Of a stretch of DNA of 64,000 nucleotides, positions 8,858 through 51,640 are shown in pieces. The first letter of the stretch is position 1. Every line of letters begins with the position of its first letter. Origin of the DNA: Acidimicrobiaceae bacterium (GTDB lineage: Bacteria; Actinomycetota; Acidimicrobiia; Acidimicrobiales; Aldehydirespiratoraceae); the NCBI GenBank assembly GCA_028819005.1, contig JAPPMP010000033.1, positions 14,273 to 78,272 on the forward strand, given 5' to 3'. The notes under the pieces are model-generated. The model ran no database searches. It worked only from the letters and a program-made list of their open reading frames with translations, and was not told where the DNA came from. The translations under genes and the position numbers were made by a program.

Positions 8858-8899
8858 ATCCCGATTCGCTCGACCAACCGCCCAGGACGCGTTGTGTTG

Positions 8900-20157: not shown

Positions 20158-20345
20158 CGGCTCATTGAGTTCGACTCCGGCTCTGCACGATGATGATCAT
20201 ATGGGCGGTTCGGTGGAGTGTCACGGCTGAAGAGTCAGTCGTGGGCACGCACCTAGTTCCGGCAATAGACGCGCCCGCCTGATCTTGAGCGGATCCATTG
20301 ATTGAACACGGCCCGACAGATTGCTGTGGTTGGTAGAGTCCGGCC

Positions 20346-20783: not shown

Positions 20784-20866
20784 GCCCAGAGACAGCGAGA
20801 CGATTGTGGGTGGCAGCCGGTAAGGTGGGGGCGGTATCGTAGTAGTTCTTCTAGAGAGGAAGTCCT

Positions 20867-21187: not shown

Positions 21188-21208
21188 CCCCTCTACAGGA
21201 CAGGCTCG

Positions 21209-21673
21209 TCAGGTCGAGCCTTCGGTCCACAGCCGGTCGATTGGCAGGGCTATGATACGGTCGTCGTCTTCAAAGCGGGTGCAGTAATCGCCTGTGTAAA
21301 ATACAACGCCGACGACAAATCGCTTGTCCAGGGCCTCGCGTAGCATCCGCAGGCCGCGCCGGTCGCGTCGATGGACCCTTCCGCTGGCCTTGACTTCAAT
21401 TCCGATGACTGAGCCGTCGTGCCCGTTTTCTATGACCAGATCGACCTCAGCTCCGTCGTGGGTGCGCCAATGGCCGACATGAGGTCGGTGTTCAAGCCAA
21501 GACGCTTGCTTGAGCACTTCACCGACGACGAATGTCTCGAGGAGGTGCCCGAACTGTTGCAATGATGTGGGGTCCAGCCCGGCGAGCTTTTCGGGTTGAA
21601 GGCTCAACAGCCTGGCCGCGACCCCTGAGTCGATGATGCGCAGCTTGGGGCGTGAGGCTACAGCAGAATGGAA
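21209..21673 (-). pseudogene. 5'-truncated DUF4143 AAA-ATPase gene (AAA domain missing)
   Basis: The listed 132-aa ORF starts at TTG. In-frame homology continues upstream (RPKLRIIDSGVAARLL, compare PKFYWVDCGVVRAL in 22686..23834) up to a stop at 21674-21676. No start codon and no Walker A are present. Confidence 0.65.
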
Positions 21674-21716
21674 TCAGGATTTCCACAGTTTGAAGACGAA
21701 CGGCTACGGTCGCGGT

Positions 21717-22664: not shown

Positions 22665-22685
22665 GCGAACAATTGGGCAGCAACT

Positions 22686-23834: not shown

Positions 23835-23870
23835 GCCATCTAAAATAGCCGAAAACCGACGGTATATCTG

Positions 23871-26800
23871 TCACTTTTGCGGATTCAGCGCCTCGATCAA
23901 CTTTTCTGGCACCCAGTCGTGGACATGCTGGGCCGTCCATCCGTCTTCAAACAGCTGCGAATCGCGATGCTCGTCACGGTCGAGGAGGATGGCCACTTGC
24001 TGATCCGGCCAAGCGACTTCAAGGACGTCTCCTGAAGAAGTCGCGAATTCAGCAACAGGCGTCGACGCACCAAGATCCGAGACTTTGCGAAGCAGGCCAT
24101 GGACCAGTGGACTGAAAGCCTTGAATTCGTCGGGCTTTCGAGTGCTGAGAATGTGGTCGATCAAGGCCTGTGCATAACCGCGTGACAGTTCGTCGTGAAA
24201 ATACTGGTTGCGGTAAGTCCTCAAGCAGCCATAACAAGACGCTGATTCCTGACAAGAGCACACAACAACTCTGCGGGCTGCCATGAAGAGGGCAGGCAGG
24301 TTGTCGAGAATCCGCTGGGCATGGCCGGCCCCACCGGGAACTGTGTCGAACAACACCATTGCCGAAGAAGAGTTTCGGCCCCGAAAGTGCATCGTGCCGT
24401 CGACCTCAGCACGATTGATCCCGATAGCGGGCACCGCGGCCAGCAGGGCACTGAGCAGGCTGGTCATTGAATTGCCGGGGAAGCGGGTTCGCGGCGTTCC
24501 TTCGAATTGGATTTCCAATACATCAGTCAGGTAGTCGTGTCCGAGCTGTGTGAATTGCATACGACCAGCACATTTCTTGCCGGGCCGGCGCAAATCGTCG
24601 TGGTCTTTGCTGGATCGGCCCGAAGCCCGTTCGCCCTTTCCGCACCATGGGCAGAACCTGTAGCCGTTGGCATTGATCGTGACGATTCGGCCGGCACTGC
24701 TGGCACGCGCCGAGACCGCCAAGGTGCTTGAGAGCTCAGGAATCTCGGCGAACTCGGGCGCAGCATCTCGGTAGGAACCGAAATAGGTTTGCGTGCCGGT
24801 TCGACGAGAAGGCGGACTGTGCGGTTCGCCTTCGTGTTTGCCGACGAAGCCGTACCGCGGGCTGATGAAGTGGCCTGCGCCTTTTTGAGATCTGGTCTTT
24901 TGGCAACCGCACTCTGGACATTCTGGACTCACCTCTTCGATATGCATGCGAAACGCTTCGCAGGCATGGCATACCTTCCAGTGGTACTTGGGAAGCTCTT
25001 CACCTCGATGTGGTTGGCGGATACCTTTCGCTACCCAGAGCTGACCGCCGGCCACCACGGATTCCCCGGGTGCGAATTCCGTTATTGCAACGCGGAGGTC
25101 GCGGTCAAGCTCAAGCGATTGTGATTCAGTCCCGGCGTCAGACAGGTGGAGCGGGACAACGTCGATCGGAAACCCATATTTCGGGAGTATGTTCCGACTC
25201 GCCAAGAATCCCAAGAGTGACCGAGCCTCGAGGTTCCGCTTGACTCTTTTGAGGCGGTCACCCTGGCTCCCACGCTGTTGGTCGAAAGCGTCCGCAATCA
25301 TTTCGCTGAGTGCCTCAGACTCTTCATCGACGTCTTCGGCGGCTCGTTTCATCCAACCGAAGGTCGGCTCTGAATCGTCGTGCTGGTACAGAGCCTCAAC
25401 CCAGCCCCAGCCGGCGATGTCCATTTCAGCAGATGCAGCGTCTGGCAGCACCCGCTGCAGCGCAGTCTGAATCGCAGTCGGCTTGCAATTCAGCCACGTC
25501 TGGAACGCATCAGCACCCGATTCACCTCGCTCCCGGAAGAACTTTCCGACCTGTGTGGCCGGTTCCAGCCCCCTGTCGGCCAGGTGGCGCTGAAACGCGG
25601 CGAACGCCACGGAGTGGGCATGTCTGCGCAGTATCGGGGTGTTCTCGAGATGGATCCTCGGAGGGTTGACATGTCCGTCGATCATCGTCATCGGATCGTT
25701 GAAGAACGTCCGGTCGTGGGACCGCAACTGTGCCATCGCAATCACCACCGCCGCGGAGTTCTGTCTGCGACCGGCCCGGCCCGCACGCTGAACATAGTTG
25801 GAGGCGCTGGGCGGAACGTTGCGCAACAAGACCGCTTGAACATCTCCAACATCCACGCCCATCTCAAAGGTGGTCGAACAGCTCAGCACGTTCAGCTTCC
25901 CGCGCACGAACCGGTCCTGGATCTCACTTGCTTTGTCGGGCCGCCATTGCGCGGTGTGCTCCTCCACCGACATCCCGATCACATCCAGCTTTCGATAGAG
26001 CTGCGCGTAGTGATTGGAATCTACAGTTGCTGCATCAACCAGTTCCAGTGTTCCTTCGCAGCGCCACGAAGGGCACTCCCCGGCGATGGTGCGCCACCAG
26101 ATATTGCGGCATTTTGCGCACTGGTATGCAGGGTTGTCGGTGGATGCGAGGCCGAACTCGAGTCGCGTATGGTTCAAGGCGAACGTCACACCACGATGAT
26201 CGTTTGATCTGGTGAACAGCCCGTCTCCGGCGGGACCGGTGATCTGCTCCCACACGTTCTTCAAAACGTCGACGGGTCCTGCTTCGACGGTCCGTCGAAG
26301 CAGGACTTTGCGCAAAATCTCAACGCGTCGGTTTGTAGAGCGGGCACCTGGCAGCCAGGAGAGAATTCCAGAAGCGGACCCTTGCTCGCGCATTGCGATC
26401 TGCACGTTTCGCGGGGCGAACATCTCGTGGCTGATATCCACACCATCAGGTGTCGAAACGGCACCGCTCAGGCGCAGAGTATCCAAGAGGATCTGCAGCA
26501 GGTCAAAACATTCGTCCCTCTCCAAGCCGAGCCGCAGTAACGAATCCGGAGGTTCCAAGAGACGCGGCAAGGCCGACCGGATGTCTACTAGCCCCAGTCC
26601 GTCAAGGCTCTGCCGTCGGTCGAGAGCCAAGGCTTCTCGCGTGACCCAGCGCTCGACAGTCTTCTGATTGGCGGCGCGACCATCGTCGGGGTTGAGCAGC
26701 ACATCTTCAACTGCCCGCCTCGCGTTGTCGACGACATCGTCGAATCGCGGAGCCTCACCATATCGCTTGCTGAGGTCTGAGATTGCTTGAAGTACCACTC

Positions 26801-28871
26801 GTCGGACCACAGCGCGCTCATATGTGCGATTCAGAAACGGAGCAGCGAAGGCTGCGTCTTGGCGGCTGTCGGCGAAAGAAAGCAGCTTCCTTCCTTTGCC
26901 GATCTCGTGCATCTGACCGGGGTCGGGTGATGGTGGAAGGTTCTGATACAGCGCGGTCGCAATTACCGAGAGTGGAGCGTCCCTGCCTGTTCGGTAAGGC
27001 GATACAACACCGTCACGACGTGAAGCGCTGCACACGACGCAGCGTTTCAGCTGACCGCTGTTGTCGGGCAAGTCGATTCGGGTGATTCTGACTTGATGCT
27101 TCTGTTGTTGTCTGGAGTCGCTGAGCAACCCACTCTCGACATCAAAATACTGGGTTGTGTCAGTCGGCAACTCCTGGTCGTCCAACAGCTCGTCTCCGAG
27201 CGCGTCGGCGTCCTCGTCGGTGAGGTCAGAGTGTTTGACGTCACTGATGTGCAAGTAGTCGAATTTTGGACCAGAGTGCAGTTGGAACTGCTCGCCGGCC
27301 CCGGTGGGTTCGATCCGGCCGATGGCGTACTCGCTTCCACACGACCGGCAGACGCCGATTTCAACCAAGTGTGACTGGATCCCCAAGTTCTGGCACCACG
27401 GACAGGTCTTGTGGCGTTCCATCTGGAGCCGGTTCGCTCCCGCGGGATGTTCGGGATGCTGGCACAGATAGCCGCCGTCAAGTGATTTGAGCCAATAGTG
27501 GTAACGAGCGGGCAGCAGTGGAGCGTCGTCAGGGCGAGGTTTGGCTGCCACAGCTAGATCGACGAGCTTGACGACGTCGTTGCGAGCACGGTCTCCCCCG
27601 AACGCATGGCGTGCAAGATCGTCAATCGAACGCGAGCCGCCCGATAACTGCTCCTGAACGGAGATCACCGTTTGTTCCTGGCCCAGCACGCGGTGTAGGT
27701 AGGCTTCGGGGGCTTCACCATCGCGAGAGTCAAGACTCGGAGCGTGCGCGAGAATCTGTTGCGCTAGTTCCGAAGCAGGTGCTCCGTTGCGAAAAGCCTG
27801 CTGCAGCAACCCGAAGGCTTCTTGGGGAAGCTTGAAGGCTGCGTCGTCGAGGACCAACGAGCGCCGCGTCGCTTCTACGATGTCCTGCCGGTTCAGGTCA
27901 TGGTCCACCCACTCGAACGGTTCATCGAACATCCGCTCGGCGAATTCAATGAGATCCGGGTAATCCTCCTGACCCTTTCCCATTGTGGCGCTTGTGGCGA
28001 AGCACTGAAGCCGGCCGGGTTCGCTGCTATGGATCCGATCGCGGACGCGACGGAGCAGCATCGCCACCTCGGTTCCCTGTGCGCCGTCGTACACGTGGGC
28101 TTCGTCCAGCACCAGATGACGCCACGCTTGGGCGTTGTCGCCATCGAAGAACGGGCTGTCCTTGGGTCGGAGCAGCAGGTATTCGAGCATCGCGTAGTTG
28201 GTGAGCAGCAGCGAAGGAGGATTCGCTTGGAGTTCTTCTCGCGAAAGCAGTTCGTTGGGAATGAGAGGCTCGGACGGGTAGCGGTGTCGAAATGCGTCCT
28301 CGGCCCCTTGTTTCGTGTAGCCGGTTTCTCCGACATAGCGTCCGAAAGTTATTTCGGGAAACGGCTCAAGCAACCGTCGAAGGCGCTTCACCTGGTCATT
28401 GGCGAGAGCGTTCATTGGATAGAGCAAGAGGGCGCGAACACCCGCGCGCGCAATCGACCCGCTTTCGATTTCTCTGAACAAACCGTTCAGGATGGGCAGC
28501 AGAAACGCCTCGGTCTTGCCGGACCCTGTTCCGGTCGCGACGATCAGGTTGCGGCCGCCTGCTGCCTTGCGGACCGCTGTCTCCTGATGAAGGTGCAGCG
28601 GGCGATCAATGGGGAAGGTCTGCGGGCTGAAACGAAGAAACAAATCCGACAGCAGCCCCTCCTCGACGAGTTCGCGAACCGAGCACCCTTGCTCGAATGG
28701 TGCGGATGCTTCAAGAAAAGGCCCTTTAGACAACTCTGCGTTTTTCATCGTCGACTCGAACTCGCGGGCTCTCCCGGGATGGCTGCCACGGAAAGTGGAA
28801 ATCAGGTAGCTCCGGTATGCGCTGTCGATCTGCTCGGTTGTCTTCAACGCGTCGAGTGTTTCAGTCTCCAT
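23871..28871 (-). CDS. 1666-aa DExH-box helicase with DUF1998-like zinc region and small C-terminal domain (DruE-like)
   Basis: ATGTGSGKT (28512-28538), DEAH (28095-28106), SAT, QRAGRAGRR (25764-25790) and Cys clusters at aa 1301-1323, 1407-1410 and 1538-1549. The gene-level call is firm; the DruE label is an inference. Confidence 0.85.
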   Translation of the reverse strand: METETLDALKTTEQIDSAYRSYLISTFRGSHPGRAREFESTMKNAELSKGPFLEASAPFEQGCSVRELVEEGLLSDLFLRFSPQTFPIDRPLHLHQETAVRKAAGGRNLIVATGTGSGKTEAFLLPILNGLFREIESGSIARAGVRALLLYPMNALANDQVKRLRRLLEPFPEITFGRYVGETGYTKQGAEDAFRHRYPSEPLIPNELLSREELQANPPSLLLTNYAMLEYLLLRPKDSPFFDGDNAQAWRHLVLDEAHVYDGAQGTEVAMLLRRVRDRIHSSEPGRLQCFATSATMGKGQEDYPDLIEFAERMFDEPFEWVDHDLNRQDIVEATRRSLVLDDAAFKLPQEAFGLLQQAFRNGAPASELAQQILAHAPSLDSRDGEAPEAYLHRVLGQEQTVISVQEQLSGGSRSIDDLARHAFGGDRARNDVVKLVDLAVAAKPRPDDAPLLPARYHYWLKSLDGGYLCQHPEHPAGANRLQMERHKTCPWCQNLGIQSHLVEIGVCRSCGSEYAIGRIEPTGAGEQFQLHSGPKFDYLHISDVKHSDLTDEDADALGDELLDDQELPTDTTQYFDVESGLLSDSRQQQKHQVRITRIDLPDNSGQLKRCVVCSASRRDGVVSPYRTGRDAPLSVIATALYQNLPPSPDPGQMHEIGKGRKLLSFADSRQDAAFAAPFLNRTYERAVVRRVVLQAISDLSKRYGEAPRFDDVVDNARRAVEDVLLNPDDGRAANQKTVERWVTREALALDRRQSLDGLGLVDIRSALPRLLEPPDSLLRLGLERDECFDLLQILLDTLRLSGAVSTPDGVDISHEMFAPRNVQIAMREQGSASGILSWLPGARSTNRRVEILRKVLLRRTVEAGPVDVLKNVWEQITGPAGDGLFTRSNDHRGVTFALNHTRLEFGLASTDNPAYQCAKCRNIWWRTIAGECPSWRCEGTLELVDAATVDSNHYAQLYRKLDVIGMSVEEHTAQWRPDKASEIQDRFVRGKLNVLSCSTTFEMGVDVGDVQAVLLRNVPPSASNYVQRAGRAGRRQNSAAVVIAMAQLRSHDRTFFNDPMTMIDGHVNPPRIHLENTPILRRHAHSVAFAAFQRHLADRGLEPATQVGKFFRERGESGADAFQTWLNCKPTAIQTALQRVLPDAASAEMDIAGWGWVEALYQHDDSEPTFGWMKRAAEDVDEESEALSEMIADAFDQQRGSQGDRLKRVKRNLEARSLLGFLASRNILPKYGFPIDVVPLHLSDAGTESQSLELDRDLRVAITEFAPGESVVAGGQLWVAKGIRQPHRGEELPKYHWKVCHACEAFRMHIEEVSPECPECGCQKTRSQKGAGHFISPRYGFVGKHEGEPHSPPSRRTGTQTYFGSYRDAAPEFAEIPELSSTLAVSARASSAGRIVTINANGYRFCPWCGKGERASGRSSKDHDDLRRPGKKCAGRMQFTQLGHDYLTDVLEIQFEGTPRTRFPGNSMTSLLSALLAAVPAIGINRAEVDGTMHFRGRNSSSAMVLFDTVPGGAGHAQRILDNLPALFMAARRVVVCSCQESASCYGCLRTYRNQYFHDELSRGYAQALIDHILSTRKPDEFKAFSPLVHGLLRKVSDLGASTPVAEFATSSGDVLEVAWPDQQVAILLDRDEHRDSQLFEDGWTAQHVHDWVPEKLIEALNPQK

Positions 28872-31800
28872 CGGGCGCCCCCCTCAGCGAACCCTGCTCG
28901 CGCAGGTGGTACAGCAGAGCGACCACGAGCTGGCGTTCAACTAGACGAGGCGCGAATTCGTAGGCCGCGGACAGGGCGTCGATCGCCATTGAATCGATCC
29001 TTGGATTGGTGTTGAAACAGACCAACTGGAGCGAAATTGCCAACAGGTCCGCCGGCAATCGCAACAGAGGGTCTGGTGCTTGACTCAGTTCAGCATGTGC
29101 GACGCGTGCCTGTTCTGGCCATTCGCCTTGGGATAGACCGAGCAGAGTCCTCTGCCCTTCTTGCCATCGCTGAGTCTCCGAATAATCGCCCGCTGACTGG
29201 AGCAACCACCGGACCATCGCTTCGAGGAACCCTGTCATTTGCAGTAATACGACCCTCTGGCTCGTGATTTTCGCGTAGGTCTTCCTCAAGGAACCGATTT
29301 CACGTTTGAGAATCTCTGTCTTCAACGGCTTGCCGTCGTATACGGGACCGTCGGTAAGAACCCAGCCGAGGTGGGTCTTCCAGCGAGACAGAGCCGCCTC
29401 ATCTACAGGCCGATCCATCGCTGCTGCAAGAACTGGTGAAACCTCCCACAGATCGCGGTAGTCGCGATCGTTGAGCGAGCCGGCACTGATCGGACAGTCG
29501 CAAGCTCCGGTTATCAGTTGCAAGACTGCAAGACGAGCGATGTGTTCCCCGAGGCGACCGGTCTGGTGTTCGGCAACGATGGCTTTCGCGAGTCGCGCCG
29601 GATCGTCCAAAAGCGTCTCGGAGCAGTGGTGTTTGACAAGGTCTTTGAGCGAATCATTGAGCTGACGCGATGACGCGACGACGAGAGTGATCGCCTGCAA
29701 TGCCTCAGACGCGAGGCGCATGGCCTCGGTCTCATCGGGCGCAGCTTCAATCGCTTCACGCGTAGGGAAGTTCGCAAGTTCATCTTGGCCCGACCGATCG
29801 GTGGACAGATCCTGGTCTGGCGAGACGTCGAATCGGCACATGTTCGCAGAATCGTGGCTTGGGAATCTGGTTTCGGCCACCTCCACGGTGAGTTCTGCGA
29901 TGTAGTGGCTCGGCGACAGATCCAAAGGACCAAGCAAGATTCGCTGTGAACCGTCGAGTCCGTCCAGAACCCGAAAATCAACCGGGTCGATCCACGGGCG
30001 CAGACTGTCCCAAATGCGAACGACGCGACCATCCGTCGTGGCGACCTCTTCGAACTCGCAGAACGCGTCGCCGTTGCCGTGCATAAACTCGAACCACCGG
30101 ACTTTGTAGTCTCTCCGAATCTCCAGAGCGGAACCTGCGACGGATTCGGCTTCGATCGAGACGACCAACAGAGGCTCTGATGTATGCCGCACCGTGTCGC
30201 GAAAGGACCGCAAATCGAGCCGAAGCCGGCCTGTGCGCCGCGAGGTGGTCTTCCAACTGCCTTGTTGCACGACAGCGTCGAATCGGTCCCGCAGGACAGC
30301 GCGGACTCGCGTTTCCAAACCTGTGTTGACCCAGAGAAACGGCTCAGAATCAAGGAACTCTTCTACGGTAACTGAAACTTTCTGAAGCCCGAAGCTCTCC
30401 GCGGCGATGTCGGGCCCGATGTCCCATAGCAGCCGCGGAATCTTGAATTGCAGCTCGGCCGCCTCTCTTGAAGTCGAAGCCGTGAGTTCGAGTGTGTCGC
30501 TGCCAGGGGCAAACTCATAAGCGTCCCGACCTGGTTCCGGTCCGCCAGGCCGGCCGAGATGAACCCCGTCATCCACCGTAATCGTGTTGACGAACGTCTC
30601 ATACGGAGCCACCACCTTGCTAGGAGGTCGGTAGTCGAGCCCTGAGACAACAATAAACTGCTGGTCCAAGTCACCACCGAGTGGCCCGCTGACCCGAATT
30701 CCGATTTGCGCCACCAACGGGATATCGTCCAGTTGATCCAGTGACCACAGGTTGTCGTCCTCTCCGAGCCTGGTTTCGATGCGTCCTAGCTGAGCTACCT
30801 GCCGGACTCCCCGTGGTTCGTCGTTGACATTCAGGCTTACAAACCACCGTTTCGGGTTGTCGCCGCGAGGGATCCGCAGCATCGGTAAGCCGTCATAAAC
30901 GGGCGTGTCGCGGTGGCCCGCAACGCCAGGCAGAGGTTCCCCGATCAGTGCAGCCCGCCCATTCTCTGAACCGCATCGCAGAATCACCTCAGAACGAATC
31001 GAATCGTCGTGACCGCCATATTCAACGGCCAGTTCGCAGTTCTCCCCAAGGTCTACGTCGACGACGGTGTAGCCGCCCCAATCCCCGCTCAAAGGCGCGT
31101 AGTTGGTGGAACGAACAAGCCTGCGGTTGCCGATGTGAAGGGTGGAGCCATCGGGCACAAGGGCTACCAAGTCATCCCCGGTCCACAGCCTTGAGGTGAC
31201 CGGCCGGCCATCGGTAAGCCCGAAGAGATAGACCCCTCCCGCTGAGGAGATGACGTCAAGCCTGCTCGCCAGCTCACCGTTGCAGCGGCCCTCGACAATC
31301 CAGCGGCTGGTCGCGGGCAGCGGTTGAATGCGTGTACGAAACCGGGAAGGCTGAAAGGAGTGCTGTTCGAAGTCACCCCGTAAGAGCCATTTGTCGATTT
31401 CGCTGGTTGGCGGAAGGACTAGTTCAGGCCCCGCTTCAGTCCAAGGGTCAAACAGGATCTTTGGTCGAGCCGCAGAAGATGTGACGGCAAGCGAGCGGGG
31501 CATGGTGACCTGGCCCATGACGTCGTCCAGATACTGCGCAAGCCCGAAATCCTCAGCGCTGACCTTCGCGTTCTGGACTCTCTCCTTCAATAGGAGTGCG
31601 AGTCGGTTGAGATAGTCTTCTGCAAGGTCGTCGCCGTAGCGAAGGAAGTGAAGGACCGGCTCGGGCAATGGCACACTGCGATCATCATGAAGCAGTGCGG
31701 TGTGTAACTCGGTACCGTTGGCCAGACCTTCGTTGAGGAACCCCGATACTCGCTCGAGCAGTCTTTGTGATGACTCTTTGGGCACGATCGCGTGGAACAT

Positions 31801-32235
31801 CACCTGGCTCACGTACCGCATGTGTGGTTCGTCCCGCAGGCGCTCAGCAGCGTCAAGAAGACGTTGTTCCTTAACGGCTTTCTCGAACGCTTGACCCGTC
31901 GCCGTCTGAAGGGAGGCTCGGCCGCCGACAAACGGAACATGCTTCCACAGCTCACCACCGTGACCGTGGTGAGCCCCGATTCCGGCTAGGTAGTACGCGA
32001 ACAGTGCCGGATGTGTCCTGGCGAATGCTTCGACACGACTCGCCATGTCGCGCTCAGTTGGTTTGGCAAAGTGCTCTTCGACTAGCTGTTTGGCCCGCGC
32101 AAACGCAGGTCCTTCGAATGGGAACTCACCGACCAGCCGCCGAGTGCTGAGCTTTGACTGGATGTACCTGTCAAGCTCAACCGGATACATGGACGCTATG
32201 TCTGTGCTGTTGGGACCGCGATTACCGCTTTCCAT
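28861..32235 (-). CDS. 1124-aa protein of unknown function, translationally coupled to the helicase (DruH-like position)
   Basis: A long uninterrupted ORF whose stop (28861-28863) overlaps the helicase start (28869-28871). I recognise no motifs. Confidence 0.8.
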   Translation of the reverse strand: MESGNRGPNSTDIASMYPVELDRYIQSKLSTRRLVGEFPFEGPAFARAKQLVEEHFAKPTERDMASRVEAFARTHPALFAYYLAGIGAHHGHGGELWKHVPFVGGRASLQTATGQAFEKAVKEQRLLDAAERLRDEPHMRYVSQVMFHAIVPKESSQRLLERVSGFLNEGLANGTELHTALLHDDRSVPLPEPVLHFLRYGDDLAEDYLNRLALLLKERVQNAKVSAEDFGLAQYLDDVMGQVTMPRSLAVTSSAARPKILFDPWTEAGPELVLPPTSEIDKWLLRGDFEQHSFQPSRFRTRIQPLPATSRWIVEGRCNGELASRLDVISSAGGVYLFGLTDGRPVTSRLWTGDDLVALVPDGSTLHIGNRRLVRSTNYAPLSGDWGGYTVVDVDLGENCELAVEYGGHDDSIRSEVILRCGSENGRAALIGEPLPGVAGHRDTPVYDGLPMLRIPRGDNPKRWFVSLNVNDEPRGVRQVAQLGRIETRLGEDDNLWSLDQLDDIPLVAQIGIRVSGPLGGDLDQQFIVVSGLDYRPPSKVVAPYETFVNTITVDDGVHLGRPGGPEPGRDAYEFAPGSDTLELTASTSREAAELQFKIPRLLWDIGPDIAAESFGLQKVSVTVEEFLDSEPFLWVNTGLETRVRAVLRDRFDAVVQQGSWKTTSRRTGRLRLDLRSFRDTVRHTSEPLLVVSIEAESVAGSALEIRRDYKVRWFEFMHGNGDAFCEFEEVATTDGRVVRIWDSLRPWIDPVDFRVLDGLDGSQRILLGPLDLSPSHYIAELTVEVAETRFPSHDSANMCRFDVSPDQDLSTDRSGQDELANFPTREAIEAAPDETEAMRLASEALQAITLVVASSRQLNDSLKDLVKHHCSETLLDDPARLAKAIVAEHQTGRLGEHIARLAVLQLITGACDCPISAGSLNDRDYRDLWEVSPVLAAAMDRPVDEAALSRWKTHLGWVLTDGPVYDGKPLKTEILKREIGSLRKTYAKITSQRVVLLQMTGFLEAMVRWLLQSAGDYSETQRWQEGQRTLLGLSQGEWPEQARVAHAELSQAPDPLLRLPADLLAISLQLVCFNTNPRIDSMAIDALSAAYEFAPRLVERQLVVALLYHLREQGSLRGAPDGD

Positions 32236-43994: not shown

Positions 43995-44073
43995 CTTGCA
44001 CATCCCGCTTGCAGGGGACGCAAGTCGCTCAGGCTAGATCCTGAGGAGGTCATGTGATTGCGAGTCATTCAGA

Positions 44074-44280
44074 GCGCGCAAATAGGCAGGCCTTCGAGTT
44101 GCAGTCGGTTGTTCCCCGCTCTTGGTTCGCTGCGCTGCATTTCCCGCTCTTGGTTCGCTGCGCTCACCGGCCCGCTCGGGCCGCGGGCGGGCCGCCGGCC
44201 ACGGCCCCGCAAATCAAACCGTTCGCACTCGAAACCGTTCGCACTCGAAAGTCATCTGCCTGTTTGCGTGGCCTCTCAGG
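44074..44280. mobile_element. MITE-like intergenic element, copy 2 (about 200 bp)
   Basis: It aligns with 9452-9745 at both ends. Terminal inverted repeats are CGCAAATAGGCAG..TTCGAGT and ACTCGAAA..CTGCCTGTTTGCG. An internal 16-bp unit is duplicated at 44219-44250. Confidence 0.6.
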
Positions 44281-44764
44281 TGGATGCCTTGTTGGACACA
44301 TGCAGTGTCAGTCCGCTCACCAGCAGGGTCCCGATGAACAGGCCTTGAGTCATTAAATGGTTCCTCTCGCCCAACAGGATCGCACCGGCTGACAGAAGTG
44401 CAAAGAACAGCACGCTGAGAGCGATGCAAGCGTGGCCGACTTCGTAGCGATGCGGTTTGCGGGTGACGAAAGCAATGAGCGACAGCAGGAACAGCAGGCC
44501 CAGCACCACCTCGATGATGCCGACGCCAGCGGCTAGAGGCGCTGCCAGCGACGTGTCCAACCCCAGTTTGGGCAGCATGTTTTGTTCGAGTCCCATTTTG
44601 AAGTTCACGCCGTAGAACTCTGCGCCGTTGAAAAACTTGTCGAAGCCGTTCAACAGCCAGAACAAGAACCAGTACAGGCTCAGCACCGCTCCGATACCGA
44701 CCTTCTCATTGATGCGAACAAGCATTCCCGCAATTCCGGGCGCGCCCGCAGTTCGATCATTCAT
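44276..44764 (-). CDS. DoxX-like membrane protein
   Basis: It has four hydrophobic segments and AAGGAGA lies upstream of ATG 44764. The family call is tentative. Confidence 0.55.
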   Translation of the reverse strand: MNDRTAGAPGIAGMLVRINEKVGIGAVLSLYWFLFWLLNGFDKFFNGAEFYGVNFKMGLEQNMLPKLGLDTSLAAPLAAGVGIIEVVLGLLFLLSLIAFVTRKPHRYEVGHACIALSVLFFALLSAGAILLGERNHLMTQGLFIGTLLVSGLTLHVSNKAST

Positions 44765-44938
44765 GTGCTGTCTCCTTTAGTCGTTGGGCCCGCGTTGACG
44801 TGCCTATGTGTTATGTGCAACCAGTCTATATGGAGCCGCTGATCGCGTGACTTGGAGAGTTGTCCATCGTGGTGCGGTCAACTGAGAGCAGATCGTTGAG
44901 TCGCAGGGGGCCGGTGCGCAAAGGTTTCGGTCGGCGGG

Positions 44939-46288
44939 TCAGCCGTGGACGCTCATGGAAGTGGCGGCTGCCTCGCGGTTGCGGCTGAAGAATCCGACTT
45001 CGATGGGCATGCCGGTGTAGCGTCCTGTCACCACGAGCGGGTCGTTGTCGTGGTCAAGGCCACTTTCGACCGCGGTGATCAACTCGGCCATCACATGTCC
45101 GGCAACGGATCCGTTCTTGTACTGGTTGCCACTGGTGCCGATGGCCACGTAGAACCCGTCGAGATCGGTGCGGTCATAGATCGGCACCCAGTCGTCGCTG
45201 ACGTCGTAAAGGTCGACGACGCCCTTCTTCTGGTGGGGGATCCCGAGTCCGGGAATCCGTCGTCCGGCGCGAAGCACCTGAGCCTCCCACTGGCTGTCGC
45301 TGATCCGGTTGTCGTAACTGTCGGGGTGAACCCATTGCTGCTCGTCGCAGGTCGGGTCGCCGCTGCCGATCAATATGTGGTTGCCGACCTCGGGCCGGTA
45401 GTAGACCCCGGTGTCGTCGTCGGCGGCGGTGAATCCCTGTGTCTCGTAGTCGAACCCGTCGGGGGCGGGCACGTGATGCACCTCGTGGCGCAAGGCTCGG
45501 GTCTTGATCTTCATCGAGTCGTAGACGCCGGCCATCTGGTTGATCAGATACGAGTGAGGTCCGGCGACGTTCACCACCACCGAAGCGCTGATTCTGGCGC
45601 CGTCCGCGAGCGCGACGCCCGAAACCCGTTGTGACGAGCGCAAGATCTCGACGATCTGCGAGTTGAACATGAAACACGCACCGGCAGCTTCGGCAGCTCG
45701 CTGAAGGTTGTGGACTGACAGCTGGGGGTCGTTGACGTACCCGGCCTCCGGTGAGTAGATCGCGCCGCGGAGCTGGGCTGAAGGCTCTTCCCAGAACTGT
45801 TCGTCGGACGGCAGTTTGGGCGGGCCGTAGCATCCCTGATCGAAGATCGGCAGGCGCCGAGCCAGGTCCTCGGAAGTCCACTCCTCAAAGGGAATGCCGA
45901 GTTCGTGCCACAGGGCTCGTACTCGTTGGGGGTGGTCGGTGTCGTCGCTGAGCAGCACCACCTGTCCGCATTGGCGGTATTCGATCAGCCCGAGCTCATC
46001 CTCGACGCCTGTGTAGTCGCGCCAATTGAGCCAGTAGTGGAGTCCTTCCCAGGCCAAAACGACTCCCGGCTTTGTCGAGTAGCTGAACCGCACGATCGCA
46101 CAGGAGTTGAGGGTCGACCCGGCGCCGGCGCTCGCAGCCTTGTCCACACACAGCACACGCCACCCCCGCCGTGCCAGTTCGAGCGTTGTGGCTGCGCCGA
46201 TAATGCCGGCGCCGATGACCACCGCATCGTAACTGTCGCTGCTTTCGGGTCCGGCAGGACCAACCGGCTTGGAGTTCGCATTCATCAC
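44939..46288 (-). CDS. FAD-dependent oxidoreductase (DAO / sarcosine-oxidase-beta-like)
   Basis: N-terminal DAVVIGAGIIGAATTLELARRG dinucleotide fold. Confidence 0.85.
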   Translation of the reverse strand: MMNANSKPVGPAGPESSDSYDAVVIGAGIIGAATTLELARRGWRVLCVDKAASAGAGSTLNSCAIVRFSYSTKPGVVLAWEGLHYWLNWRDYTGVEDELGLIEYRQCGQVVLLSDDTDHPQRVRALWHELGIPFEEWTSEDLARRLPIFDQGCYGPPKLPSDEQFWEEPSAQLRGAIYSPEAGYVNDPQLSVHNLQRAAEAAGACFMFNSQIVEILRSSQRVSGVALADGARISASVVVNVAGPHSYLINQMAGVYDSMKIKTRALRHEVHHVPAPDGFDYETQGFTAADDDTGVYYRPEVGNHILIGSGDPTCDEQQWVHPDSYDNRISDSQWEAQVLRAGRRIPGLGIPHQKKGVVDLYDVSDDWVPIYDRTDLDGFYVAIGTSGNQYKNGSVAGHVMAELITAVESGLDHDNDPLVVTGRYTGMPIEVGFFSRNREAAATSMSVHG

Positions 46289-46421
46289 GGGATCTTACCC
46301 ATGTCGCGATTTCAGCCCCATGGCCTGAAGACGGTTGGGGATTGTTGGGGCAGCGCAGAGGTTCGGGGGCACGCACTGGCGGCTTCGACGCCCGGCGCCT
46401 GCCGACGTGCTCTGCGGCGGG

Positions 46422-46632
46422 CTAGGCGTGGACAGTGAAGGCTTGGCGGCGGTTTCGGCCGAACCGGTAGATGAAATAGTCCTGATCAAATGAGATCGCC
46501 TCGTGAACGCCGAGGCGCCGCATGATCGACCAGTTTGTGCGATCGACGATTGAGAACTCCTAGTCGGTGAACGCGTCGTGAATCTGCGAGGCGATCTCAA
46601 GGTCAGCGATCGTGGCGACTTCCACGCGGGCC
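46422..46632 (-). pseudogene. duplicated 3' half of vapC (47341..47757) with an internal stop
   Basis: About 210 nt align to 47341-47551 with scattered mismatches. The codon corresponding to Q in TDQEF is TAG here, and there is no 5' half. Confidence 0.7.
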
Positions 46633-46643
46633 CGCTGATAAGG

Positions 46644-47036
46644 TCAGGGACCGGAGGGCCAGTGTTGAACTTCCAGTTCGGGCATCGGAAAGTCCGCAAC
46701 GTTTGCAGTGGCCAATACTGCACCCGCCCCGACAGCAGACGCCGCTATCAGGCAGTCTGCCTGATGCAGGGTGATACCGGCAGCGGCGTACTCTCGGCGC
46801 CAGCGGCCGGCGCGTTGGCCTTCTGCGCCACCCAGGGGCGCCATTCGTAGTGCTTGAACCAGGCGACGGGCCGCCGGCTCTTCCTCAGCCCGAAGGCCCC
46901 GCCAGATCTCTTCGACTGATACCGCGCACACCCACGGTTCCACACCTTGGCGCCGCATTGCTCGCAAGCGCTCCGCAGCGGGTCGACCTCTGAGCGCGTC
47001 GATCAGGACTGTCGAGTCGAGCAGAAGTCGTGACAC
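46644..47036 (-). CDS. vapC: PIN-domain toxin
   Basis: The N-terminal LLLDSTVLID motif is followed by QADCLIAASA and then ATANVADF. Start is GTG 47036, 2 nt after the antitoxin stop. Confidence 0.8.
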   Translation of the reverse strand: MSRLLLDSTVLIDALRGRPAAERLRAMRRQGVEPWVCAVSVEEIWRGLRAEEEPAARRLVQALRMAPLGGAEGQRAGRWRREYAAAGITLHQADCLIAASAVGAGAVLATANVADFPMPELEVQHWPSGP

Positions 47037-47038
47037 TC

Positions 47039-47278
47039 TCAGCCCGAACGCACCGGGTCGCTCCGCCGCTGCGCGCGAACCCATCCTTGAGGGTCTTCGT
47101 CCCAGTCATGCCCGGTGTCGGCGATCGACGCTAGAGACTCCTCAATCTCATCCCAGCGTTGCTCCTGCTCAAGACTGCGCCGGATCAGCGCTGCGATAAA
47201 CGCGCTCCGCCGCCGATGCCCCGCTCTCCGGTCCAGATCTGCTACCAGATCATCTTCAAGCTGAATGTGTAAACGCAT
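47039..47278 (-). CDS. vapB: ribbon-helix-helix antitoxin
   Basis: MRLHIQLEDDLVADLDRRAG...RSAFIAALI is RHH-like. It lies upstream of the PIN gene. Confidence 0.75.
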   Translation of the reverse strand: MRLHIQLEDDLVADLDRRAGHRRRSAFIAALIRRSLEQEQRWDEIEESLASIADTGHDWDEDPQGWVRAQRRSDPVRSG

Positions 47279-47340
47279 GTGCCTAATTATACACATAGAT
47301 CAGACTGTCACGACTCCGACTTTCGTCAAAGAGCTTGAGG

Positions 47341-47757
47341 CTAGGTGTGGACAGTGAAGGCTTGGCGACGGTTGCGACCGAACCGGTAGATGAAATAGTC
47401 CTGATCAAACGAGATCGCCTCGTGAACGCCAAGGCGCTGCATAATCGACCAGCTTGCGCGATCGACGATTGAGAACTCCTGGTCGGTGAACGCGTCGTGG
47501 ATCTGCGCGGCGATCTCAAGGTCGGCGATCGTGGCGACTTCCACGCGTGCCCCACCGGAGCGGACTGTTGCGATGAGTGTTTCGGCTGTATCGAAACCGA
47601 GCCGATTAGCCGCCAGGAACCAGGTCTCGACGAGCACATGATCGCTGGTCACCAGGTCTCCGGAGAACTCGCTGAGGCGTTCGACGGCTCGGTCGTGATG
47701 AATATCGCCGAGGTCCGCGGCTGCGTACCAAGCCGACGTGTCGACGAAGACGCTCAC
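47341..47757 (-). CDS. vapC: PIN-domain toxin
   Basis: FVDTSAWYAAAD, SDHVLVET and FSIVDRAS. It overlaps its antitoxin gene by 4 nt. Confidence 0.85.
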   Translation of the reverse strand: MSVFVDTSAWYAAADLGDIHHDRAVERLSEFSGDLVTSDHVLVETWFLAANRLGFDTAETLIATVRSGGARVEVATIADLEIAAQIHDAFTDQEFSIVDRASWSIMQRLGVHEAISFDQDYFIYRFGRNRRQAFTVHT

Positions 47758-47999
47758 CTCCGCGCGTCCCGATGAACTGTTATGGCTTCAGCCGTGGCTG
47801 TCTTGCGATCGACGGCGATGTTGCTGCCGCCGGAATCACCGATGCCGAAGATGGCAGTGATGTCGGAGTTCGGGCTCGTCTGAGCGAGGTCTTGCTCAAC
47901 GAGGCGGCGGATGTACTCGGCCATGCTGATGCCCAGATCGACGGCCTTGCGTTTGGCGAGTGCATGCTGTTCCGATTCGAGGTGGATCTGTGTACGCAT
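47754..47999 (-). CDS. vapB: antitoxin (RHH/VapB-like)
   Basis: The 81-aa sequence, with MAEYIRRLVEQDL, overlaps vapC in the ATGA manner. The palindrome ATGATG-CTA-CATCAT spans its start. Confidence 0.75.
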   Translation of the reverse strand: MRTQIHLESEQHALAKRKAVDLGISMAEYIRRLVEQDLAQTSPNSDITAIFGIGDSGGSNIAVDRKTATAEAITVHRDARR

Positions 48000-48105
48000 G
48001 ATGCTACATCATAACAGCATCGATGCGAATGGCTCAAGATCGAGCCGTTGTCACCATGGAAATACGCGTCCCATCGTTTCCATAAGTGTGATGCGATGTT
48101 GATGA

Positions 48106-48201
48106 TGGCGGAGGTGGACGGGAATCGAACCCGCCGGACAGGGATCACCCATCCCACCCGCTTTGAAGGCGGGGGAGCCCACCAGGCGCTCGGACACCTC
48201 C
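48106..48201 (-). tRNA. selC: tRNA-Sec (anticodon UCA)
   Basis: 96 nt. Anticodon loop CTTCAAA, long variable arm (GGGAT/ATCCC), 6-position D-stem with a short loop, 8-position acceptor plus 5-bp T-stem, discriminator G and an encoded CCA. Confidence 0.8.
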
Positions 48202-48402
48202 ACACAAGAAACTACAGGCAAATCAGTTGCGCTCGACCGTGTGAGAACCCCGGTGCGTCGATACCGTCATCGGAATGTCTAAGAACCGTCTGCTTCTGGG
48301 TGTCGTCTTGATCGTGCTGCTGGTGCTGCTGGGCCGAAAGGTCAAAGACGTCTGAGGCCGCGCTTGTGAGCCAGCGCCGCTGATATCAGTGCGTTTGGTG
48401 GG

Positions 48403-48476: not shown

Positions 48477-49130
48477 GTGTTTATTGTCTGCTGGTCACCC
48501 AAGGGTGGCTCAGGTACATCGGTTGTAGCCAGCGCTCTGGCGCTCAACCTTGCTTCATCGGGCCGAGAGACCCTGCTGGTCGACACGGTCGGCGACCTGG
48601 GCATGGTCCTCGGGTTGCCGCCGGGCGACGGCGACGGCTTGTCCGACTGGCTGCTGGCGCCGTCGGATGTATCGGCCGACGCGTTGTCGCTGCTCGAGGT
48701 GACTGCCGGGGAACGACTGCAACTCCTTGGCGCTGGAAACGCAACGCAGGCGGAAATCAACCCCGAGCGGACCGTGTTGGCCGCCGACCTGTTGTCTCGG
48801 TCAGCACGCTGGGTTGTGGTCGATGCGGGCAGCACCGGCACACCGGAGCCTTGGCTGGTGCAGGGCGCACGCTCGGTGATGATTCTGCGGGCCTGCTACC
48901 TCGGCATTCAGGCTGCCCTCGCGCGACGGCTGGCCCCGGGAACTTCAATTGTGGTCGTCGAAGAGCCTGGCAGGGCTTTGCGACTGGCTGACGTGACAGC
49001 GGTCTTCGCCGGACACAACGTTGTTTCAGTGCCCTGGGATCCAGCGGTTTCACGCGCTGTCGATTCCGGCCTGCTGGCGCACCGGATGCCGCGTTCGCTC
49101 AACCGTCTCGGCGAGGTGCTCGATGGCTGA
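48477..49130 (+). CDS. CpaE/TadZ-like (Ssd-type) ParA-family protein with degenerate P-loop
   Basis: SPKGGSGTS, and the position immediately upstream of tadA. Confidence 0.7.
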   Translation: MFIVCWSPKGGSGTSVVASALALNLASSGRETLLVDTVGDLGMVLGLPPGDGDGLSDWLLAPSDVSADALSLLEVTAGERLQLLGAGNATQAEINPERTVLAADLLSRSARWVVVDAGSTGTPEPWLVQGARSVMILRACYLGIQAALARRLAPGTSIVVVEEPGRALRLADVTAVFAGHNVVSVPWDPAVSRAVDSGLLAHRMPRSLNRLGEVLDG

Positions 49131-50226
49131 AGCACCACCCATGGCTGAGACAACACCGAAGGCTGAAGCGCCGCTGCTCGATCTTGCTGAGGCTGTCCAC
49201 GGCGACCTGTTGGACCAGGGAGGCGGCACCGCGGAGATCTTCAGCGCGATAGCCCGCCATGCCCCTCTGCTGGGCGCGCGCGAAAGAGAGTCGCTGCATC
49301 GTCAGGTCACCGCCCGGTTGGCTGGGCTCGGCTCCATCGAGCCGTTGCTGGTCGATCGGGAGATCAGCGAGATCATGATCAACGGGCCGGGCGTGGTTTG
49401 GCTGGAACGCAACGGGCGGATCGAACCGAGCGGGGTGGTGCTCAACAACAGCGAACTGGAGTTGCTCGTCGAACGGATCGTGGCGCCGATCGGTCGGATC
49501 GTGGATCCCAGGCGGCCCTGGGTGGACGGGCGCCTGGCCGACGGCAGCCGGGTCAACATAGTCGCACCGCCGGTGGCTATCGACGGCCCCTATGTCACGA
49601 TTCGCCGGTTCGTGCTGCGAGCTGAAGACGTGTCTGATTTCGGGCCGCCCGACGTCGCCTCGATGCTCTCGGAGCTGGTCAAAAGAAGGCGCAGCATCAT
49701 CGTCAGCGGCGGCACGGGTGCGGGCAAGACCTCGTTGCTCAACGCCCTCGCCGCGCACGTGGCTTCTGAAGCTCGCGTGATCACCGTCGAGGACGCGGCT
49801 GAGCTTCGCCTCCAGCATCCACATGTGGTGCGACTAGAGGCGCGAGCGGCCGGGGTCGAAGGGGTCGGAGCGGTGGAGATCCGCGACCTGTTGCGCAACG
49901 CGCTGCGAATGCGCCCTGATCGGATCGTGCTCGGCGAAGTGCGCGGCCCCGAAGCACTCGACCTGATTCAGGCTCTCAACACCGGGCATTCGGGGTGCCT
50001 GTCGACGATCCATGCGAACTCCCCGACCGATGCGCTGCGGCGATTGTCGTCTTTGGTGATGTCGGCGGGCACCGGCCTGCCCCATGAGGCGATCCGCGCC
50101 CAGATCGGTTCTGCGGTGGACGTGGTCGTGCAGGTTGAACGCACAGCATCCGAAGCACGCGAGGTGGCTGCAATTGTCGAGGTGGTCGACGGTGAGACGG
50201 TACGCCCCCTGTGGTGTGGGGAGTGA
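49123..50226 (+). CDS. tadA: TadA/CpaF-family secretion ATPase
   Basis: Walker A GGTGAGKTS, TVEDAAEL and GHSGCLSTIHAN. ATG 49123 overlaps the previous stop. Confidence 0.9.
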   Translation: MAEAPPMAETTPKAEAPLLDLAEAVHGDLLDQGGGTAEIFSAIARHAPLLGARERESLHRQVTARLAGLGSIEPLLVDREISEIMINGPGVVWLERNGRIEPSGVVLNNSELELLVERIVAPIGRIVDPRRPWVDGRLADGSRVNIVAPPVAIDGPYVTIRRFVLRAEDVSDFGPPDVASMLSELVKRRRSIIVSGGTGAGKTSLLNALAAHVASEARVITVEDAAELRLQHPHVVRLEARAAGVEGVGAVEIRDLLRNALRMRPDRIVLGEVRGPEALDLIQALNTGHSGCLSTIHANSPTDALRRLSSLVMSAGTGLPHEAIRAQIGSAVDVVVQVERTASEAREVAAIVEVVDGETVRPLWCGE

Positions 50227-50825
50227 CTGTGGTGCAAGGCGTGACCGTGGTGCGGGGTACGACGGTGAACCGCGCGGAGCGTCGTCGTCTCGCCGCGATC
50301 AGCCAACTTCCCGAAATGCTCGATGTGCTGGCACGTGAGTTGCGGGCCGGGCGCAACCTCCACGAAGCGATTCAGGCAGCGTCGATGTTGCCTTCGCTGT
50401 ACGGCTTGGGGCTCGACACGCTTGTTGCGCGCTTCGCATCGGGCGAACGGCTGGTGGAAGCGCTTGACCGTTGGGCCGGCGCGCTGAACCATCCTGACGG
50501 TGATCTGGTGCGGGCTGTAGTGAGCCTCGGGTCGGTCACCGGCGGTGCGCTCGCAGGATCCATGGAACGAGCCGCGTTGACTCTGCGGGAGCGGGCCGGG
50601 CTCGTCGATGAGGTGAGGGTACTGACCGCGCAGACTCGGGCTTCGGCGATGTTGCTGTTCGTGGCGCCCATCGGCTTCGTGGTTCTGCTCTCGATGTTCG
50701 ATCCGACGAGCAGCGCGGTGGTGTTCACCACCGGTGCAGGCCAACTTTGCCTGGGGCTGGGGCTGGTGCTCGATGTCGTCGGTTTCGTGTGGATGCGCTG
50801 GCTTGTGGCGACGGTGACCCGGTGA
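50211..50825 (+). CDS. tadB: TadB-like type II secretion system F-domain protein
   Basis: LPEMLDVLARELRAG and a C-terminal pair of transmembrane segments. There are several candidate GTG starts at 50211-50250. Confidence 0.75.
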   Translation: MVWGVTVVQGVTVVRGTTVNRAERRRLAAISQLPEMLDVLARELRAGRNLHEAIQAASMLPSLYGLGLDTLVARFASGERLVEALDRWAGALNHPDGDLVRAVVSLGSVTGGALAGSMERAALTLRERAGLVDEVRVLTAQTRASAMLLFVAPIGFVVLLSMFDPTSSAVVFTTGAGQLCLGLGLVLDVVGFVWMRWLVATVTR

Positions 50826-51640
50826 GCGCCTTGTTCGTCCTCGGTTGCTGCGCGCTCAGCGCGGTGTGGCTGCGTCCCTGGCGCACCCGGCCCCGACCTC
50901 TGGTGGAACCCCTGCCCACAGCGCACCGAGATGCGCTGCGGTCGACAGGCCGCTCAGCCCGTCGGCCGAGGAGCCGGTCAGCCGGTCGGTCAGAGGGCCG
51001 CTCAACGGGTCGGGCAACTGGCCGGTCAGCCGGTCGGCCGGGCTCGACTCGACGCCGAGCGCTATTGGTCGGAGTGATCCTCGGGGTGGTAATGGTCGGG
51101 TTGTCGCAGCCGGTGCTGGTCATCCCGCTGCTCTTGGTATACGCGGTCGTGGTGAGACGCCGTCGGCGAGCCGCAACCGACGACCACGCCGACGTGGTCA
51201 GGGCCCTGCCCGAGGTCGTGGACTTGGTGTTGGTGGGTGTGGGCGCCGGCCTGACGCCGAGAGAAACGCTGCACCGTTGCCAATCATGGTTGCCCGATCC
51301 CTTTGCGGAAGCCGTGGCCGGAGCACTGTCGAGGGCCGCGTCCGGGGCGACCTTCGCCGACGCGCTGGACAGAGGCATGACGCCGCTGGGAGACCGAGTG
51401 CGCCCACTGGTGGCAGCGCTCAATGCCGGCGAGCGCGATCACGCAATGCTGGCCCCCAGCCTGCTGCGGGTCAGCGACGAGGCTCGTCGCCAACGGCGGG
51501 TCGCCGCACAGGAGCGAGCGCGGCGTGTACCGGTCGCGATGCTCGGACCACTGCTTTTGTGCGTGCTCCCGTCGTTCGCACTGCTGACCTTGGCCCCGTT
51601 GATACTCGGCTCTCTCAGCGACCTGGGAGTGGTCGTCTAG
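50822..51640 (+). CDS. tadC: TadC-like type II secretion system F-domain protein
   Basis: LPEVVDLVLVGVGAGLTP and C-terminal transmembrane segments. GTG 50822 overlaps the tadB stop. An alternative start at TTG 51065 would give 191 aa and exclude the repeat region. Confidence 0.7.
   Translation: MSALFVLGCCALSAVWLRPWRTRPRPLVEPLPTAHRDALRSTGRSARRPRSRSAGRSEGRSTGRATGRSAGRPGSTRRRALLVGVILGVVMVGLSQPVLVIPLLLVYAVVVRRRRRAATDDHADVVRALPEVVDLVLVGVGAGLTPRETLHRCQSWLPDPFAEAVAGALSRAASGATFADALDRGMTPLGDRVRPLVAALNAGERDHAMLAPSLLRVSDEARRQRRVAAQERARRVPVAMLGPLLLCVLPSFALLTLAPLILGSLSDLGVVV
50948..51043. repeat. two tandem 48-nt units (GRSARRPRSRSAGRSE / GRSTGRATGRSAGRPG)
   Basis: Units at 50948-50995 and 50996-51043, sharing GCCGGTCAGCCGGTCGG. 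Confidence 0.75.

Follow-up and report, generated by a model that had tools for sequence, protein, structure and literature searches.

Does a tRNA gene that appears to carry mismatches in its acceptor stem and D-stem, and that lies far from selA and selB, encode a working tRNA for selenocysteine? The question is raised by positions 48106-48201 of the window, by which we mean the whole 64,000-nucleotide stretch of DNA that was analysed. A sequence-only reading had folded this gene by hand as selC rather than tRNA-Ser, about 31 kb from selA-selB, and had warned that its mismatches might threaten tRNA-Sec identity. Our analysis places selC at exactly those coordinates and adds the strand, which had been left unstated and is minus.

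Identity of the gene and its partners in the window

The tRNA gene and the two Sec pathway genes that accompany it in the window are as follows:

48106-48201, minus: selC, tRNA-Sec(UCA), 96 nt including the encoded CCA (ARAGORN, Rfam RF01852)
15741-17009, minus: selA, L-seryl-tRNA(Sec) selenium transferase (Pfam PF03841 SelA, E=3.5e-99, model positions 1-366 of 367)
13975-15705, minus: selB, Sec-specific elongation factor (Pfam GTP_EFTU, GTP_EFTU_D2, Beta-barrel_SelB and SelB-wing_3)

The whole selC RNA reads, 5' to 3', GGAGGUGUCCGAGCGCCUGGUGGGCUCCCCCGCCUUCAAAGCGGGUGGGAUGGGUGAUCCCUGUCCGGCGGGUUCGAUUCCCGUCCACCUCCGCCA, and we number it so that tRNA position p lies at window coordinate 48202-p. 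Of the three tRNA genes that ARAGORN found in the window, one is a tRNA-SeC with anticodon tca at 48106-48201 on the minus strand, so the check with a tRNA finder that had been proposed returned the expected gene. Rfam matched RF01852 (tRNA-Sec) to 48110-48201 over the full model (1-91) with 64.0 bits (E=1e-10; gathering score 47), and retained the tRNA-Sec model over the general tRNA model in clan competition. The sequence-only reading had said that it should be given up if covariance models scored the gene as tRNA-Ser or a pseudogene, or if a better selC existed elsewhere. What the covariance model returned is tRNA-Sec, well above threshold and with a clade-typical score, and no second tRNA-Sec was found in the window by ARAGORN or Rfam.

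Features of the RNA itself agree with these calls. A 7-nt loop, C-U-U-C-A-A-A at positions 34-40 with U33, presents UCA, and both SerRS identity elements, a long variable arm and G73, are present. That the gene is selC and not tRNA-Ser follows from the agreement of both tRNA finders, from the presence of selA and selB in the same window and from a set of features: the UCA anticodon, G73, the long variable arm, the 13 layers of the acceptor/T branch, and a D-stem of 6 bp capped by a tetraloop. We conclude that 48106-48201 is a genuine, typical selC; the identification is correct but ordinary, and the type of gene is already known.

Several kinds of tRNA resemble tRNA-Sec, namely opal-suppressor tRNA-Ser, allo-tRNAs (8/4 or 9/3) and the selC* tRNA-Cys(UCA). 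These look-alikes score well with tRNA-Sec covariance models, and they too have a long variable arm and D-stem (PMC5389517). We consider it extremely improbable that the window gene is one of them. The selC* tRNA-Cys carries U73 whereas the window gene has G73, allo-tRNAs have 12-bp branches (8/4 or 9/3) whereas the window tRNA has 13 layers, and tRNA-Ser has a 7/5 branch and a 3-4-bp D-stem in place of the 6-bp D-stem and tetraloop found here. Neither of the published marks of selC* and allo-tRNAs, U73 or a 12-bp 8/4 or 9/3 branch (PMC5389517), is found in the window tRNA. The outcome of the Rfam clan competition and the presence of selA and selB speak against a look-alike as well.

Pfam confirmed both partner genes, and selA lies 31.1 kb from selC, in line with the distance given earlier. 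Among the 46 window ORFs tested we found no selD, formate dehydrogenase (fdhA with an in-frame UGA) or other selenoprotein gene; selD and a selenoprotein gene are presumably located elsewhere in the genome. From selA and selB alone we infer that selC is used in the Sec pathway.

Fold of the tRNA and its variation among homologs

For comparison with selC of related taxa, a species-representative genome collection was scanned with the pattern CTTCAAAN{20,34}CGGGTTCGATTCCCG. This gave at least 120 loci, mostly from Actinomycetota (Acidimicrobiia, Streptomyces, Micromonospora, Mycobacterium, Pseudonocardia, Kocuria, Actinomadura and others), with a few from Myxococcota and other phyla. Since the inner T-arm and the anticodon loop were set by the pattern, the sample is biased and these columns carry no information. 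ARAGORN called tRNA-SeC in 115 of the 120 listed loci, and GCCA is encoded in 78 of 115 listed homologs. Alignment A1 contains 104 distinct sequences from the listed loci (hereafter the 104 listed homologs), in which pairs were counted under two fold models. An alternative model with a 7/6 junction and a bulged G15 pairs 97.4% of cells, compared with 88.9% for the model of the sequence-only reading. The covariation score under the alternative model is 0.531; shuffles give 0.148 and slid controls no more than 0.101, and 21 cloverleaf pairs are changed on both sides. Positions C28, G47, G67 and G73 are invariant; the CUUCAAA loop is invariant too, in part imposed by the search pattern.

The acceptor stem, the T-arm and the 3' end consist of the following elements:

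48195-48201, minus: 5' strand of the acceptor stem, positions 1-7, GGAGGUG, pairing with 86-92 (A1)
48110-48116, minus: 3' strand of the acceptor stem, positions 86-92, CACCUCC (A1)
48194, minus: U8, the "8th acceptor position", opposite C85 (A1 columns)
48117-48135, minus: T-arm, positions 67-85 (RNAfold, A1)
48109, minus: discriminator G73 (sequence; invariant in the 104 listed homologs)
48106-48108, minus: encoded CCA (sequence)

Seven acceptor pairs with U8 opposite C85, a discriminator G and an encoded CCA had all been described correctly and can be read directly from the sequence; the seven pairs form in 104/104 listed homologs, four of them with covariation. The T-stem can be drawn as GGCGGG/CCCGUC, 6 bp long with G67-C85, or as the 5 bp of 68-72/80-84 that had been reported (GCGGG/CCCGU, the first pair being G.U), closed in either case by the loop UUCGAUU. 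The 8+5 geometry that had been put forward is accordingly one of two possible readings, the junction being equally readable as 7+6. Both give 13 stacked acceptor/T layers, either 7+6 with G67-C85 or 8+5 with a U8.C85 non-pair, and by the 8:85 count a strict branch of eight Watson-Crick pairs plus five is not found in selC.

Position 85 is where the two readings diverge. In only 5 of the 104 listed homologs do positions 8 and 85 make a standard pair (three C-G, two U-A), whereas 67:85 is G-C in 93 and G.U in one. Put in terms of N85, its partner is G67 in 94, N8 in five, neither in five and both in none. The G67-C85 pair is thus backed by conservation and energy, without covariation since G67 never varies. 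RNAfold gave selC a minimum-free-energy structure of -48.8 kcal/mol with seven acceptor pairs, a 6-bp T-stem including G67-C85, and U8, C9 and C10 as connector. Energies of fixed structures were:

7/6 with the D bulge: -48.8 kcal/mol
U8, G67 and C85 unpaired: -46.4 kcal/mol
7/6 with the D register of the sequence-only reading: -46.8 kcal/mol
complete model of the sequence-only reading: -37.3 kcal/mol

On the aligned homologs and these modelled energies, a 7/6 junction with G67-C85 is moderately favoured over 8/5. The same gene, with the same function, might instead adopt the classical 8/5 fold, in which U8.C85 would form a stacked layer and G67 would remain unpaired between the variable arm and the 5-bp T-stem, and we regard this as a real if tentative possibility. 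It is the bacterial fold established by experiment (cited in PMC5330540), and the 8/5 register is used in relatives, because 8:85 is Watson-Crick in five listed homologs (C-G in three Myxococcota or delta-proteobacteria, U-A in two Actinomadura). U8, moreover, is kept in 91 of the 104 listed homologs while the linker positions 9 and 10 vary. This conservation is the main argument that suggests a structural role for the base, and it agrees as well with an 8/5 fold in which U.C stacks as a non-Watson-Crick layer. Set against this are the non-standard 8:85 in 99 of 104 and the pairable G67:N85 in 94 of 104 listed homologs, a nearest-neighbour energy that prefers 7/6 to unpaired U8, G67 and C85 by 2.4 kcal/mol, and a mycobacterial study that reads the same junction as 7/6 (PMC13449736).

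Where N85 is not C (loci L056, L101, L019, L037 and L110; A1 columns 8-10 and 89), position 8 often restores a Watson-Crick 8:85, as U-A in two Actinomadura and as C-G in a member of the Kofleriaceae and a delta-proteobacterium. The either/or pairing of N85, with G67 or with N8, suggests that the junction register may switch between lineages.

The remaining arms are listed below:

48175-48191, minus: D-arm, positions 11-27, GAGC-(G15)-CC/UGGU/GGGCUC, 6 bp with a 4-nt loop (Rfam, RNAfold, A1)
48187, minus: bulged G15 of the D-arm (insert in the Rfam alignment, RNAfold)
48157-48173, minus: anticodon arm, positions 29-45, 5-bp stem, loop CUUCAAA (ARAGORN, Rfam, A1)
48164-48166, minus: anticodon UCA (ARAGORN, Rfam)
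48174 and 48156, minus: C28 and U46, unpaired, flanking the anticodon stem (A1)
48136-48154, minus: long variable arm, positions 48-66, 7-bp stem, 5-nt loop (A1, RNAfold)

In the D-arm, the string GAGCGC/GGGCUC with a G-G mismatch is present as had been described, but the 5-nt-loop register drawn from it is less well supported. We rejected that register, with its G15.G23 mismatch, since 15:23 forms in 15 of 101 listed homologs and 16:23 in 101 of 104, the latter with covariation (C-G in 83, G-C in 10, U-A in 7); 17:22 is an invariant C-G. A 7-nt 5' D strand occurs in 90 of the 104 listed homologs, 86 of which reach 6 bp with one bulged nucleotide, and the rejected register gives six pairs in just 1 of the 90. 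The 6-bp D-stem with a 4-nt loop that SelA recognizes is therefore present in selC, with one bulged nucleotide. The anticodon loop CUUCAAA on a 5-bp stem is as described, and a sixth stem pair, 28:46, was discarded because it forms in just 4 of the 104 listed homologs and is unpaired in 100. The variable stem had been drawn too short: it has 7 bp rather than 5 (48-54/60-66, two of them G.U), while its 5-nt loop stands, and each of its seven pairs shows two-sided changes across the 104 listed homologs, with 99% of cells paired.

Three departures from an E. coli-type cloverleaf, U8.C85, the extra D-stem nucleotide and C28.U46, could be taken as signs of a decaying selC pseudogene whose mismatches arose from relaxed selection after it was parted from selAB. 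Its score of 64 bits lies below the 77-81 bits of mycobacterial genes, and the window ORFs tested include no selD or selenoprotein gene. We nevertheless judge decay highly improbable. Each of the three departures is the majority state among the 104 listed homologs, which removes the concern that they threaten tRNA-Sec identity. The score of 64.0 bits matches those of the nearest Acidimicrobiia-type genes (61.9-68.3 bits among the matches listed); of the higher-scoring mycobacterial genes, L017 (80.5 bits) and L022 (78.9 bits) both lack the D bulge, and canonical 8/5 tRNA-Sec from Myxococcota reach 70-76 bits (threshold 47). None of the seven acceptor pairs is broken, the four other stems (D, anticodon, variable and T) are likewise intact, as are G73 and CCA, and selA and selB have full-length domain matches.

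A different genome also bears on decay. L004, a Candidatus Aldehydirespiratoraceae MAG, carries a 96-nt tRNA-Sec that is 100% identical to the window selC. Over the 8 kb of L004, the only nucleotide-level similarity is the 99 nt between L004:1808-1906 and window 48105-48203; on the 5' side of the tRNA, its ParA-like gene and tadA share 48-57% amino-acid identity with the window genes. Because the tRNA is identical despite such dissimilar flanks, selC is under strong purifying selection.

In the established scheme of bacterial Sec biology, this tRNA would first receive serine from SerRS, which uses the long variable arm together with G73. SelA, reading the 6-bp D-stem and tetraloop, would then turn the serine into selenocysteine, and SelB, reading the acceptor/T branch of 13 layers, would bring the tRNA to those UGA codons that a SECIS follows. 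In the preferred 7/6 reading, the branch would most simply comprise seven acceptor pairs and six in the T-stem, including G67-C85, leaving the conserved U8 unpaired. Six pairs would make up the D-stem, interrupted by a single bulged purine and closed by the UGGU loop, and the anticodon stem would have five pairs, capped by the conserved C28/pyrimidine-46 non-pair.

Genomic context of selC and the rest of the window

In metagenome data, the window matches ROBB21-1_SAMN13943215 scaffold_286 (ENA ERZ23495468, 137,693 bp) and a Logan assembly of SRR10996925. Distance from selAB appears to be nothing unusual. In only about 31 of the 120 listed relatives, a lower bound because the blocks are not centred on selC, does selA or selB share an 8-kb block with selC, and an unlinked selC would be the usual state in this lineage. 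Within the 31 kb between selAB and selC lie glnA and another GS-like gene, nadE, a sigma-70 factor, Na+/H+ exchangers, and a stretch of lower GC (0.59) that carries defence genes. We rejected a single insertion that parted selC from selAB, given these core genes (glnA, nadE, sigma-70, Na+/H+ antiporters) in the interval and the usually unlinked arrangement in relatives. Taken together, the locus is very probably the functional selC of an uncultured Acidimicrobiia-like actinobacterium, its apparent defects being normal actinobacterial tRNA-Sec architecture and its distance from selAB the usual unlinked arrangement.

The typical position of selC in Acidimicrobiia relatives is 14-80 nt from an orthologous sigma-70 gene, with a ParA-like gene and tadA on the 5' side of selC. 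The window keeps this sigma-70/selC/tad order, but 4,111 nt separate the sigma stop (43994) from the 3' end of the tRNA (48106). This stretch, 43995-48105, is a variable spot among the matches listed, measuring 14-80 nt in about ten Acidimicrobiia relatives and 400-3700 nt in others. In the window it holds:

44276-44764, minus: membrane protein, 162 aa
44939-46288, minus: FAD-dependent oxidoreductase
46644-47084 and 47039-47296, minus: vapBC-like module, PIN gene and RHH gene, respectively
47341-47757 and 47754-47999, minus: vapBC-like module, PIN-like gene and RHH gene, respectively

A demonstrable integrase-mediated island at selC was considered and rejected, although roughly 4.1 kb of extra DNA lies on its 3' side compared with relatives. 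Searches with a 26-mer of the tRNA 3' end, allowing 3 mismatches, and with a 17-mer, allowing 2, found no repeat elsewhere in the window, and there is no integrase among the ORFs of the 4.1-kb stretch or neighbouring selC. Across the two PIN genes run wrong-frame ORFs (46295-46723 and 47283-47639) that share a near-identical peptide, AWKSPRS.TLRSPRR.TTRSPTRSSQSSIAQ. Such a near-identical wrong-frame peptide implies that the two vapC-like genes carry a duplicated DNA segment and would be recent paralogs.

A promoter and terminator scan around the tRNA found neither a consensus promoter nor a terminator for selC itself. Actinobacterial promoters often miss the consensus. The sole promoter-like site near selC, 48037-48008 on the minus strand, is downstream of the tRNA, in a place that suits the RHH gene starting at 47999. 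On the other side of selC, between it and the ParA-like/tadA/tadB genes (48477-51640), a 26-codon ORF on the plus strand (48275-48355) encodes the hydrophobic peptide MSKNRLLLGVVLIVLLVLLGRKVKDV; the ORF may be spurious, or it may specify a very short membrane peptide associated with tad.

Farther from selC, positions 19186-32235 hold a probable anti-phage defence cluster, with a GC content of about 0.59 between 24 and 32 kb. Its genes, followed by a paralog of one of them and the tRNA gene that this paralog adjoins, are:

19186-20157: type II C5 cytosine methyltransferase
22686-23834, minus: DUF4143/AAA_14 ATPase, adjoining the DruE gene; matches candidate system PDC-S01
23871-28871: helicase of 1666 aa, matching Druantia DruE (PADLOC E=1.9e-188; Pfam DEAD, Helicase_C, MZB/DUF1998)
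28861-32235: protein of 1124 aa, directly upstream of the DruE gene; no Pfam or PADLOC match
7547-8857, plus: DUF4143/AAA_14 ATPase, paralog of the 22686-23834 gene, adjoining tRNA-Pro
8899-8973: tRNA-Pro (ARAGORN)

The 1124-aa protein may be a DruH-like partner of DruE.

Comparison with known tRNA-Sec systems

E. coli tRNA-Sec has a Watson-Crick eighth acceptor pair (C-G), no bulge in its D-stem and a 6-bp anticodon stem (G27.U43). The window selC resembles it, and the RF01852 family, in its UCA within CUUCAAA, its G73, its long variable arm and the G.U first pair of its T-stem. Further points in common with E. coli selC are the 6 bp of the D-stem and its 4-nt loop, the 13 layers of the branch and a length of about 95 nt. 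Unlike E. coli selC, it has 8:85 unpaired, G15 bulged and C/U at 28:46.

The closest likeness in published work is with mycobacterial tRNA-Sec, which was described as having a 7-bp acceptor stem and a 6-bp T-stem, with the 13-bp domain kept, and as varying in its acceptor/D junction and D-stem (RNA Biol 2026, PMC13449736). The window selC shares the mycobacterial junction, GGAGGYG-U8 ... G67-GCGGG/CCCGU-C85, in which the 13 bp can be read as 7+6, as well as the UGGU D-loop, the 5-bp anticodon stem, the C28/pyrimidine-46 non-pair, G73 and CCA. Mycobacterial loci L017, L022, L053, L080 and L095 are among the rows of A1 and have these columns in common with it. The concern about mismatches is resolved because the irregularities are majority states of the clade and also fit this published 7/6 reading. 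A clean 6-bp D-stem, with 92 nt to the discriminator, is found in a group that includes L017, L022 and L095 together with L028, an unclassified Actinomycetota MAG, whereas the window selC carries an extra bulged nucleotide in its 5' D strand (93 nt), as do 90 of the 104 listed homologs, L053 and L080 among them. The arrangement also differs: in several mycobacterial loci one 8-kb block contains selC, selA and selB together, compared with a distance of 31 kb in the window.

Bacterial tRNA-Sec is classically 8/5. Published variants show that it can accommodate bulges and displaced stem boundaries: they include 12-bp branches, an additional linker nucleotide (7a) and, in Clostridiales, a bulge at 13a of the D-stem (PMC5330540), and 8/4 forms have been documented (Mukai et al., PMC5389517); the 12-bp branches in these two sources are 7/5 or 8/4. 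The D-stem bulge and 3-nt linker of the window selC fall within the variant spectrum of Secmarker (PMC5330540) and Mukai et al. (PMC5389517). Unlike the catalogued variants with 12-bp branches, it keeps 13 layers, and its D bulge is actinobacterial rather than clostridial.

Together these comparisons indicate that the putative 7/6-type junction is widespread in Actinomycetota beyond mycobacteria, which is a modest extension of the published observation and not a new kind of molecule. We see an even chance that a 7/6 branch is the default in tRNA-Sec across Actinomycetota (Acidimicrobiia, Streptomyces, Micromonospora, Pseudonocardia, Kocuria and others) and some Myxococcota, accompanied in most lineages by a conserved U8 that stays unpaired, a connector of 3 nt and a bulged purine in the D-stem. 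If so, the junction that SelA, SelB and RNase P read in these phyla would be displaced by one layer from that of E. coli. The either/or pairing of N85 fits this idea. For quality control, a hand-folded tRNA-Sec with apparent mismatches can be a bona fide selC, and in Actinomycetota these features are not defects. A comparative table of 8:85, G67, the D bulge and C28/Y46 carries the mycobacterial 7/6 reading over to Acidimicrobiia and to many further lineages of actinobacteria, and could guide the design of orthogonal Sec insertion or structure probing of tRNA-Sec other than that of E. coli.
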